From Candidatus Micrarchaeia archaeon (GTDB taxonomy: Archaea; Micrarchaeota; Micrarchaeia; CABMEP01), in the NCBI GenBank assembly GCA_038886535.1, contig JAVZXS010000002.1:70673-134672 (forward strand): a stretch of 64,000 nt of DNA, given 5' to 3'. Below are positions 43,344 to 44,533 of the stretch, piece after piece. How positions within the stretch are numbered: position 1 is the stretch's first letter; each line of letters begins with the position of its first letter. Under the pieces are notes generated by a model that saw nothing but the letters and a program-made list of their open reading frames with translations, was not told the DNA's origin and searched no databases. A program made the translations under genes and the position numbers.

Positions 43344-43774
43344 GTGCTCACCTCTTCAAAAACAGTGTAGGTATGGATATTAATCTGAAGTTTATGCACT
43401 CTAGGAAGTTGTTCCACTTCCACTATTCAATTTTCAGTATCCTATCCTGGTCTCCCACAACCATAAGAAAGGATACGAAGACGATTCACTACAATTTTTT
43501 AGTTCTTATTTCTGTTTTTTCTCCCACACTGTTTATGATAAAAAATTTTTTTGCTGTTTTTGTTTTTGAAAAGAAATATATAAAAAGCTATTTGTGAAAA
43601 AAAGTTTGTAAGAAGTAAAAATTTTTGAAAAAAATTTCACTTTTACACAAAAATCTGATCATATCTTGAACCCATGATAAGTTAAGCATTTAAACTTTAC
43701 TTCTGTAAATGTGTTTAATAATTGTTAATTAATTCATAAAAATTGTATAATTTATTTTTGAAAAAGGTGATTTT
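43344..43774. other. Candidate replication origin (oriC) between divergent cdc6 and PCNA
   Basis: This is a 430-bp non-coding gap. tctcccaca occurs at 43451-43459 and 43520-43528. There is an inverted pair aaacagtgt (43360-43368) / acactgttt (43526-43534). gttccacttccac lies at 43411-43423 (a TCCAC-type ORB-like core). A very AT-rich stretch spans ~43536-43650. Confidence 0.5.
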
Positions 43775-44533
43775 ATCTTCGAAATTGTTTTAGATGATGC
43801 AAAATTGTGGAAAAAAAGCATGGATGCGATTGTGAATCTAGTTAAGGAAGGTTCATTTGAATTTGACAAAGAAGGGATAAAGCTTATGGCAATGGATCCT
43901 TCCCAGATATCAATGCTTATTTTCAACATTCCAAGCTCCGCATTCTCAAAGTATGAAGTATCAGAAAAGGCAAAATTAGGAATCAACATTGAGGAATTCA
44001 GCAAGATAATGGGAAGAATGAGAGCAAAAGAAAAAATGGTTCTTAAGTATGATGGATCAAATAAGCTTGATGTAACATTCATAGCTGAGAAGAGTAGAAG
44101 ATCATTCAAGATACCGATAATTGATGTGACACCAGGCCCTTCAAAGGCCCTACAAATAGAATATAATACTTATGTAAAAATGAAGGCAAGTATATTCAAG
44201 GAAATTTTAAAGGACGTAGCTTTAATTAGCCCACATATTCTTCTAGTTGCAGATGTAAAGAGATTTAAGGTTGAGGCGACTGGAGATAACTCAGGTGTGG
44301 AAATTGATTACGAGGGAGATGTAGAAGTAAAATCTGATTCTGTTACCCATGGTCTTTTTTCAAGAGATTATTTAGATGACATGACAAAAGGAAGCGAAGA
44401 TGATGCAGATTTAACCATTTATTTAGGATCGCCAACACAAACAGACAAAAGACCAAAGCCACTAAAGCTTGAATACAATATCGGTCCTGCCTCATTCATT
44501 TATTTCCTTGCACCAAGAATCGAGACAGACTAA
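43775..44533 (+). CDS. pcn: PCNA sliding clamp
   Basis: It has (I/M)FEIVLDDAKLWKKSMDAIVNLVKEGSFEF..GIKLMAMDPSQISMLIFNIPSSAFSKYEV..FLAPRIE. The canonical N-terminus requires initiation at in-frame ATC 43775, 3 nt after SD aaggtgat. The first canonical codon is TTG 43805. Confidence 0.9.
   Translation: MFEIVLDDAKLWKKSMDAIVNLVKEGSFEFDKEGIKLMAMDPSQISMLIFNIPSSAFSKYEVSEKAKLGINIEEFSKIMGRMRAKEKMVLKYDGSNKLDVTFIAEKSRRSFKIPIIDVTPGPSKALQIEYNTYVKMKASIFKEILKDVALISPHILLVADVKRFKVEATGDNSGVEIDYEGDVEVKSDSVTHGLFSRDYLDDMTKGSEDDADLTIYLGSPTQTDKRPKPLKLEYNIGPASFIYFLAPRIETD

Follow-up and report, generated by a model that had tools for sequence, protein, structure and literature searches.

NCBI translation table 11 lists ATT, ATC, ATA and CTG among its start codons, and pcnB of Escherichia coli adds a further near-cognate AUU start to that of bacterial infC. 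The AUU start codon of infC, the gene for initiation factor IF3, has been described in bacteria (PMC4705826). For archaea, the start codons are given as AUG, GUG and UUG (PMC7531240, PMC4705826), and starts led by a Shine-Dalgarno (SD) site are exemplified by aEF1A of Pyrococcus abyssi, whose leader reads GGAGGUGAUUUAAAUG (PMC6237735). Ribosome profiling in Haloferax volcanii placed ~30% of putative alternative initiation sites at near-cognate codons, which were set aside as possible false positives (PMC7261190). We searched the literature for near-cognate starts in Micrarchaeota and found no paper. Here we analyze a 64,000-nucleotide stretch of DNA (hereafter the window) from a Candidatus Micrarchaeia archaeon, in which the gene for the replication clamp PCNA appears to begin at an ATC codon behind an SD site. 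The window spans positions 70673-134672 of contig C2 of the source genome, G000, an assembly of 1.14 Mb in 40 contigs with 33% G+C and 88% completeness.

Judged from sequence comparison, PCNA is probably translated from the AUC codon at 43775, a reading to which we give a probability of roughly 0.85. The ATC or ATT codon of PCNA is a new archaeal example of a feature known from bacteria, the AUU of infC. As in infC, a near-cognate codon replaces AUG behind an SD site; orthologues retain it, and the initiator tRNA presumably reads it at reduced efficiency. The two systems differ in that infC is bacterial and works with IF3, whereas the organism here is an archaeon with aIF1, aIF1A and aIF2; moreover, infC encodes a translation factor, whereas here a replication clamp carries AUC or AUU, with no known autoregulatory loop. 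Like archaeal SD-led starts such as that of aEF1A, the PCNA leader has an SD with the core GGUGAU, pairs with the 16S rRNA tail and has a short spacer, but the starts accepted there are AUG, GUG and UUG, and a conserved AUC/AUU on an essential gene falls outside them. The H. volcanii sites suggest that archaeal ribosomes can initiate at near-cognate codons; those, however, are alternative or novel sites in a largely leaderless organism, whereas the codon considered here would be the only start available to a conserved essential gene.

The PCNA frame and its ribosome-binding site

The PCNA frame is open on the forward strand from 43751 to 44533, as read from the stop-to-stop list of open reading frames (ORFs) and from the sequence of positions 43600-44700. 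No in-frame ATG, GTG or TTG lies between the upstream TAA (43748-43750) and TTG 43805-43807, the first canonical codon, which is codon 11 counted from ATC; the next, ATG 43820, is codon 16. A sequence-only reading of the window had placed the TAA, the SD site AAGGTGAT, ATC 43775 and TTG 43805 at these positions, and the sequence and ORF list agree with it throughout (Table 1). Both PCNA domains were recognized in the translated frame. PCNA_N (PF00705) scored 63.8 bits against a gathering cut-off of 20.3, with the phenylalanine encoded at 43778 at model position 2, and PCNA_C (PF02747) scored 31.2 bits against a gathering cut-off of 23. Residues 10-258 of the stop-to-stop frame match residues 3-248 of Thermococcus kodakarensis PCNA1 (PDB 3LX1; E = 8.5e-38), the first β-strand included, and F3 of the solved Thermococcus and Pyrococcus PCNAs (MPFEVVF...) pairs with the same phenylalanine at 43778 (E ~1e-37). 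The conserved N-terminus, FEIVLDDAK, therefore lies upstream of every canonical start in the frame, and the Pfam and Thermococcus alignments, which begin at this phenylalanine, uphold the earlier claim that PCNA homology extends beyond all of them. With homology to 3LX1 over its full length and both PCNA domains present, the protein looks ordinary, and only its start codon differs. It is the single PCNA match in the 1.14-Mb genome.

The SD site at 43764-43771 is followed by the spacer TTT and then by ATC 43775-43777, giving the layout GGTG-N5-ATC and a leader reading AAGGUGAUUUU-AUC. We located the 16S rRNA 3' tail (...GATAGATCACCTCC, also GATCACCTCC) on contigs C1 and C23 of G000; AGGTGAT is a 7-nt perfect complement of this tail, which places the site in the top 19% when 111 canonical SD-led starts are ranked by match length. 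Across the genome, we counted in-frame ATG codons preceded by GGTG at a distance of up to 16 nt; a 5-nt spacer between GGTG and ATG was modal (128 of ~265 pairs), the same spacing as in PCNA. The modal spacing and the match to the 16S tail indicate that the geometry is no chance resemblance. The parallel drawn with ndk also holds: AAGGTGAT-AGA-ATG at 63759-63772 on the reverse strand heads an ORF reading MKKERTLILIKPDG. Apart from its codon, the PCNA leader resembles an ordinary SD-led start of G000. Elsewhere in the window, a receiver-domain ORF (21765-22172, forward strand) shows no GGTG-type SD in front when the sequence is read, a situation unlike that of PCNA.

Two routes other than SD-led initiation at AUC can be imagined from the leader, and we regard both as highly improbable. 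One is recoding, in which translation would begin at the out-of-frame GTG 43767 inside the SD site and return to frame by a -1 frameshift; the other is leaderless initiation on a transcript starting near 43775. GTG 43767 does open an 8-codon ORF in the +1 frame, but it has no SD of its own and no conserved slippery heptamer, and the spacer varies among relatives (ATTTT, ATGTT, ATTGT, GGAAA), which argues against recoding. AT-rich, TATA-like sequence 25-60 nt upstream would suit a leaderless transcript, whose start is not fixed by sequence alone. Leaderless initiation, however, has been described for 5'-terminal AUG, GUG and UUG (PMC7531240), whereas at this locus there is no canonical codon and a conserved SD stands 5 nt upstream. 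Nor would a leaderless route account for why GGTG-N5 is so strictly conserved.

Table 1. Positions of the PCNA start region and of other SD-positioned near-cognate starts in the genome; coordinates are those of the window unless a contig is named.
Feature	Position	Strand	Basis or remark
In-frame TAA closing the PCNA frame upstream	43748-43750	+	Sequence, ORF list
SD site AAGGTGAT	43764-43771	+	AGGTGAT, 7-nt perfect complement of the 16S 3' tail
Proposed PCNA start codon ATC	43775-43777	+	ATC/ATT across the family; aligned ATG in other families
PCNA coding sequence, 252 codons + TAA	43775-44533	+	PF00705, PF02747, solved-structure alignments
ATT, codon 4 (start implied by 249-aa product)	43784-43786	+	Rejected as start
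TTG, codon 11, first canonical codon	43805-43807	+	Rejected as start
ATG, codon 16 (start implied by 237-aa products)	43820-43822	+	Rejected as start
IDI2 (type 2 isopentenyl diphosphate isomerase), ACG at 31166	31155-31168	+	ACG 5 nt after GGTG
DUF541/SIMPL membrane protein, GAGGTGGTTTT-ACG, ACG at 15080	15069-15082	+	Family alignment
AbrB-like gene, 278 aa, AbrB/MazE-like N-terminus, SD-positioned ATT	contig C4:13001-13834, outside the window	-	Family alignment
DEDDh exonuclease paralogue, CTG behind GGTGATAAT	contig C3:54201-54800, outside the window	+	Neighbouring paralogue has ATG

The start codon in relatives and in public records

The comparison of the start region drew on six more species in the genus, two more genera in the family, two contigs from metagenomes and a contig from a split metagenome-assembled genome (MAG). 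This comparison with orthologues, which the sequence-only reading had proposed, separates the family from other Micrarchaeia families. In 11 independent contigs of the family the PCNA start codon is ATC (8/11) or ATT (3/11) and never ATG, in each case 5 nt after GGTG, so that GGTG-N5 before an ATY codon is kept in all family members. The eight contigs with ATC read GGTGATTTT-ATC-TTC-GAA; ATT occurs in G004, G008 and G007, whose proteins are 83%, 68% and 57% identical. Other Micrarchaeia families behave differently: of 21 loci aligned from 12 of them, 17 carry ATG (ATG TTY GAG/AAG ATA) at exactly this codon, the remaining four having ATG one or two codons away, or GTG. In a maximum-likelihood protein tree, ATT is the ancestral state of the family, and ATC arose from it once, on the branch leading to the clade of G000. 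By this tree, the start has been non-canonical over ~40% protein divergence.

These contigs also decide between the two explanations originally offered for the ATC, an AUC initiator or a point error in the assembly. The first is supported by the comparative evidence and the second is refuted. ATC differs from ATG by a single base and stands in a metagenome-assembled genome, which is where an error might be suspected; yet seven further independent contigs, which come from different samples and studies, carry the identical ATC, and three that are more distant carry ATT. Since these ten contigs share ATC or ATT, an assembly error is ruled out. A pseudogene that has lost its start codon fares no better, given an intact frame, the only PCNA of the genome and purifying selection, and we consider error and decay together to have a next to negligible chance of being right.

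Differences among the 11 family sequences in codons 2-10 are nearly all synonymous (GAA/GAG, ATT/ATA, TTA/CTA/CTC/CTT, GAT/GAC, GCA/GCG and AAA/AAG), a pattern that indicates that these codons are translated. F2 is an invariant TTC and E3 is GAA or GAG, and both residues are conserved across the class, where they follow ATG. The pattern in codons 2-10 speaks against a start at the first canonical codon, TTG 43805 or ATG 43820, which would yield a PCNA lacking its first 10-15 residues. Those two are the only ATG, GTG or TTG codons near the 5' end, and Logan assemblies contain 237-aa products that begin at ATG 43820 (MDAIV...). Neither is preceded by an SD, however, nor is either conserved as a start codon in relatives: codon 11 is CTA in G004, CTG in mg41, GTG in G008 and AAT in G007, and codon 16 is TTG, ATC or GTT in G004, G008 and G007. 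A downstream start would moreover remove the first β-strand (βA1), which aligns to all solved PCNAs. We therefore judge such a start very improbable.

On the upstream side, two relatives narrow the interval: an in-frame TAA stands 3 codons before ATC in L041 and a TGA 4 codons before it in L038. The codons between stop and ATC in these two are the SD itself (GGT GAT TTT), and conservation upstream ends at the SD. As codons 11 and 16 vary and stops lie this near to ATC, ATC/ATT is the sole conserved single-base neighbour of ATG in the interval that is permitted.

Most gene callers accept only AUG, GUG and UUG for archaea. An exact-sequence look-up returned 13 records of the PCNA cluster with products of 237, 249, 258, 259, 260, 262 and 266 aa for essentially one gene, length differences that arise from differing guesses at the start codon alone. 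The NCBI records include MVLDDAK (249 aa, in one case from a 246,150-bp contig), MFEKGDF (259 aa), MIFISEKGDF (262 aa) and MYKNIIF (266 aa). The 249-aa product implies a start at ATT of codon 4, other contigs yield 258-266-aa products whose ATT or ATC start codons precede the SD, and the record of the sister species G002 has a 260-aa product from its upstream ATG. The annotation pipeline thus already concedes a non-canonical PCNA start, but places it inconsistently and never at the SD-positioned codon.

Such records raise the question of whether another non-canonical codon is used, either ATT 43784 (codon 4) or an upstream ATT or ATC such as ATT 43754, the source of the 258-266-aa products. 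All relatives have ATT or ATA at codon 4, which suits this idea as the records do. Yet the annotated starts are inconsistent between genomes, and the upstream ATT and ATC codons precede the SD, are not conserved and are cut off by the stops in L041 and L038. Codon 4, in turn, lies 14 nt after GGTG, outside the SD spacing of the genome, and a start there would lose F2 and E3, which are conserved in family and class. A start at any of these codons is, in our estimation, improbable. Taken with the comparison above, the ATC or ATT behind the SD is most likely a real, evolutionarily stable near-cognate start of the sole PCNA gene in this Micrarchaeia family.

Near-cognate starts in other genes of the genome

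The sequence-only reading had also suggested a genome-wide scan for SD-positioned non-canonical codons. We scanned for GGTG followed at N4 to N7 by a non-canonical codon heading a long open frame, and recovered PCNA together with four other homology-supported cases: IDI2, an AbrB-like gene, a DUF541/SIMPL membrane protein and a DEDDh exonuclease. Five genomes of the genus share ACG in IDI2, whereas G002 and G004 have ATG at the same codon. Homologues in the PDB align from residue 2, and the first canonical codon lies 30 codons downstream, past the conserved RKxxH block. The AbrB-like gene has ATT in six genomes and ATC in G004, that is, ATT or ATC in 7 of 8 family members; G007 has a TTG one codon downstream of the aligned position, and the first canonical codon of the gene lies 83 codons downstream. 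For DUF541, G000 and G001 read ACG GCG where other family members read ATG GCA, and a TTG 7 codons downstream is a possible alternative start. The CTG of the DEDDh exonuclease is shared with G003 and is CCG in G005; this copy may be decaying or losing its start, and it lends the near-cognate pattern weak support. RNase HII, examined for an ATA start, begins with a regular ATG in this family.

In all five homology-supported genes that lack a canonical start, the SD-positioned codon is a single-base neighbour of ATG. Such neighbours make up 14% of codons in long ORFs, and five of five would arise by chance with a probability of ~6e-5, a count made post hoc. If the genome has roughly 1,150-1,200 genes, ~0.4% of them are affected, and near-cognate starts in G000 are rare but recurrent; this is not a recoded genome. 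SD matches in the near-cognate genes span 5-7 nt, compared with a mean of 5.6 nt for canonical starts, so that compensation of the near-cognate codon by SD strength is suggestive at most. We also considered a special context at position -1, where T occurs in all five near-cognate starts against 47% of canonical starts, and rejected it, as the difference is not significant.

Two further observations concern the surroundings of these genes. The divergent cdc6/orc1 and pcna genes are separated by a spacer that contains a 16-nt inverted repeat, TCAAAAACAGTGTAGG / CCCACACTGTTTATGA, at 43356-43371 and 43523-43538, with 151 nt of AT-rich DNA between its arms; these could be origin-recognition-box-like elements of a replication origin. 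Directly 3' of PCNA, an ORF on the forward strand (44607-45881) resembles an IspD-IspF fusion, with one cytidylyltransferase-like half and one resembling 2-C-methyl-D-erythritol 2,4-cyclodiphosphate (MEcPP) synthase, which is unexpected in an archaeon that also has the mevalonate-route enzyme IDI2.

Initiation machinery, proposed mechanism and significance

The initiation factor aIF1 (SUI1) was found in 24 of the 25 genomes searched, including G000, and its loss was accordingly rejected as a cause of the unusual start. The aIF1 gene of G000 was itself considered as a candidate for an ACG start behind an SD-like GAGGTG. This was rejected, as an in-frame GTG aligns with the ATG of G008, and from this alignment aIF1 most likely starts at GTG. 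No tRNA-Met gene, initiator or elongator, was found in the 88%-complete assembly of G000 by ARAGORN (default and 80% thresholds, introns allowed), by the Rfam tRNA model run over the whole genome or by an anticodon-arm pattern, and BLAST of G000 with the initiator tRNA of G002 gave no match. Candidates for tRNA-Met that appeared at low thresholds were AT-rich false positives. The gene probably lies in the missing 12% of the assembly; alternatively, the methionine tRNAs of G000 are too unusual to be recognized. Many tRNAs of G000 carry introns. A canonical archaeal initiator tRNA (A1, GGG/CCC anticodon stem, CAU anticodon and the arm GGGCTCATAACCC) is present in the sister species G002, and the same anticodon arm occurs in G008, at a locus where ARAGORN called no tRNA gene. 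Neither the presence of aIF1 nor the normal initiator tRNA of the sister species points to altered machinery or an altered decoding apparatus, although the initiator tRNA of G000 itself may differ.

Several observations nevertheless weigh against translation from AUC. The initiator tRNA, anticodon arm included, is absent from the G000 assembly. In vitro, the aIF1 of Sulfolobus solfataricus discriminates against AUU (PMC4705826, PMC6237735). Given that aIF1 is also present in G000, the PCNA start may be of low efficiency, and high abundance is expected of this protein. Finally, three relatives have canonical in-frame codons upstream of ATY (ATG at codon -7 in G002, GTG at -4 and -8 in G008, TTG at -5 in G007), which could be usable as starts there; none of them has an SD of its own.

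The simplest mechanism for translation from AUC would be one in which the SD keeps AUC positioned in the P site and so allows Met-tRNAi to pair with it. The 16S 3' tail would pair with AGGUGAU at 43765-43771, and this pairing would bring the codon, which stands 5 nt after GGUG, into the P site, just as at the AUG starts of the genome. Initiator Met-tRNA would then read AUC despite a third-base mismatch, and the protein would begin Met-Phe-Glu-Ile-Val. Initiation at AUC would probably be less efficient than at AUG. The sequences themselves show the layout of the leader, the ATY kept throughout the family, the ATG at this codon in other families and the constraint on codons 2-10 at the protein level; we infer the decoding of AUC by Met-tRNAi, the efficiency of initiation and any regulatory purpose. 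In evolutionary terms, ATG probably changed to ATT once at the base of the family and ATT to ATC once within the genus, the weak start having persisted since. Because other genes of G000 behave likewise, the lineage probably tolerates near-cognate starts behind a well-placed SD, as in PCNA, IDI2, DUF541 and the AbrB-like gene.

A more far-reaching idea, which we hold to be possible but rather unlikely, is that the AUY start is a selected feature of the family and no mere defect that is tolerated. Together with the ATT/ATC start of the AbrB-like gene and the ACG starts of IDI2 and DUF541, it would then reflect either a lineage-wide relaxation of start stringency in archaea that rely on a strong SD or an aIF1-linked translational throttle on the clamp. 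A throttle of this kind would be an archaeal counterpart of the infC/IF3 circuit. If selection were indeed at work, the family would provide naturally conserved AUC, AUU and ACG starts on essential archaeal genes, outside AUG, GUG and UUG.

Translation from the near-cognate codon, selected or not, would mean that the sole essential clamp of a whole DPANN family has no AUG, GUG or UUG start, and public records trim or extend this protein in at least six ways (237-266 aa). Recognizing SD-positioned ATC, ATT and ACG starts would correct gene models and restore strand βA1 to predicted PCNA. The gene would also offer a concrete, conserved test case for how archaeal aIF1 and aIF2 handle near-cognate codons, and it is relevant to the question of whether genome-reduced symbionts use weak starts to set expression levels.

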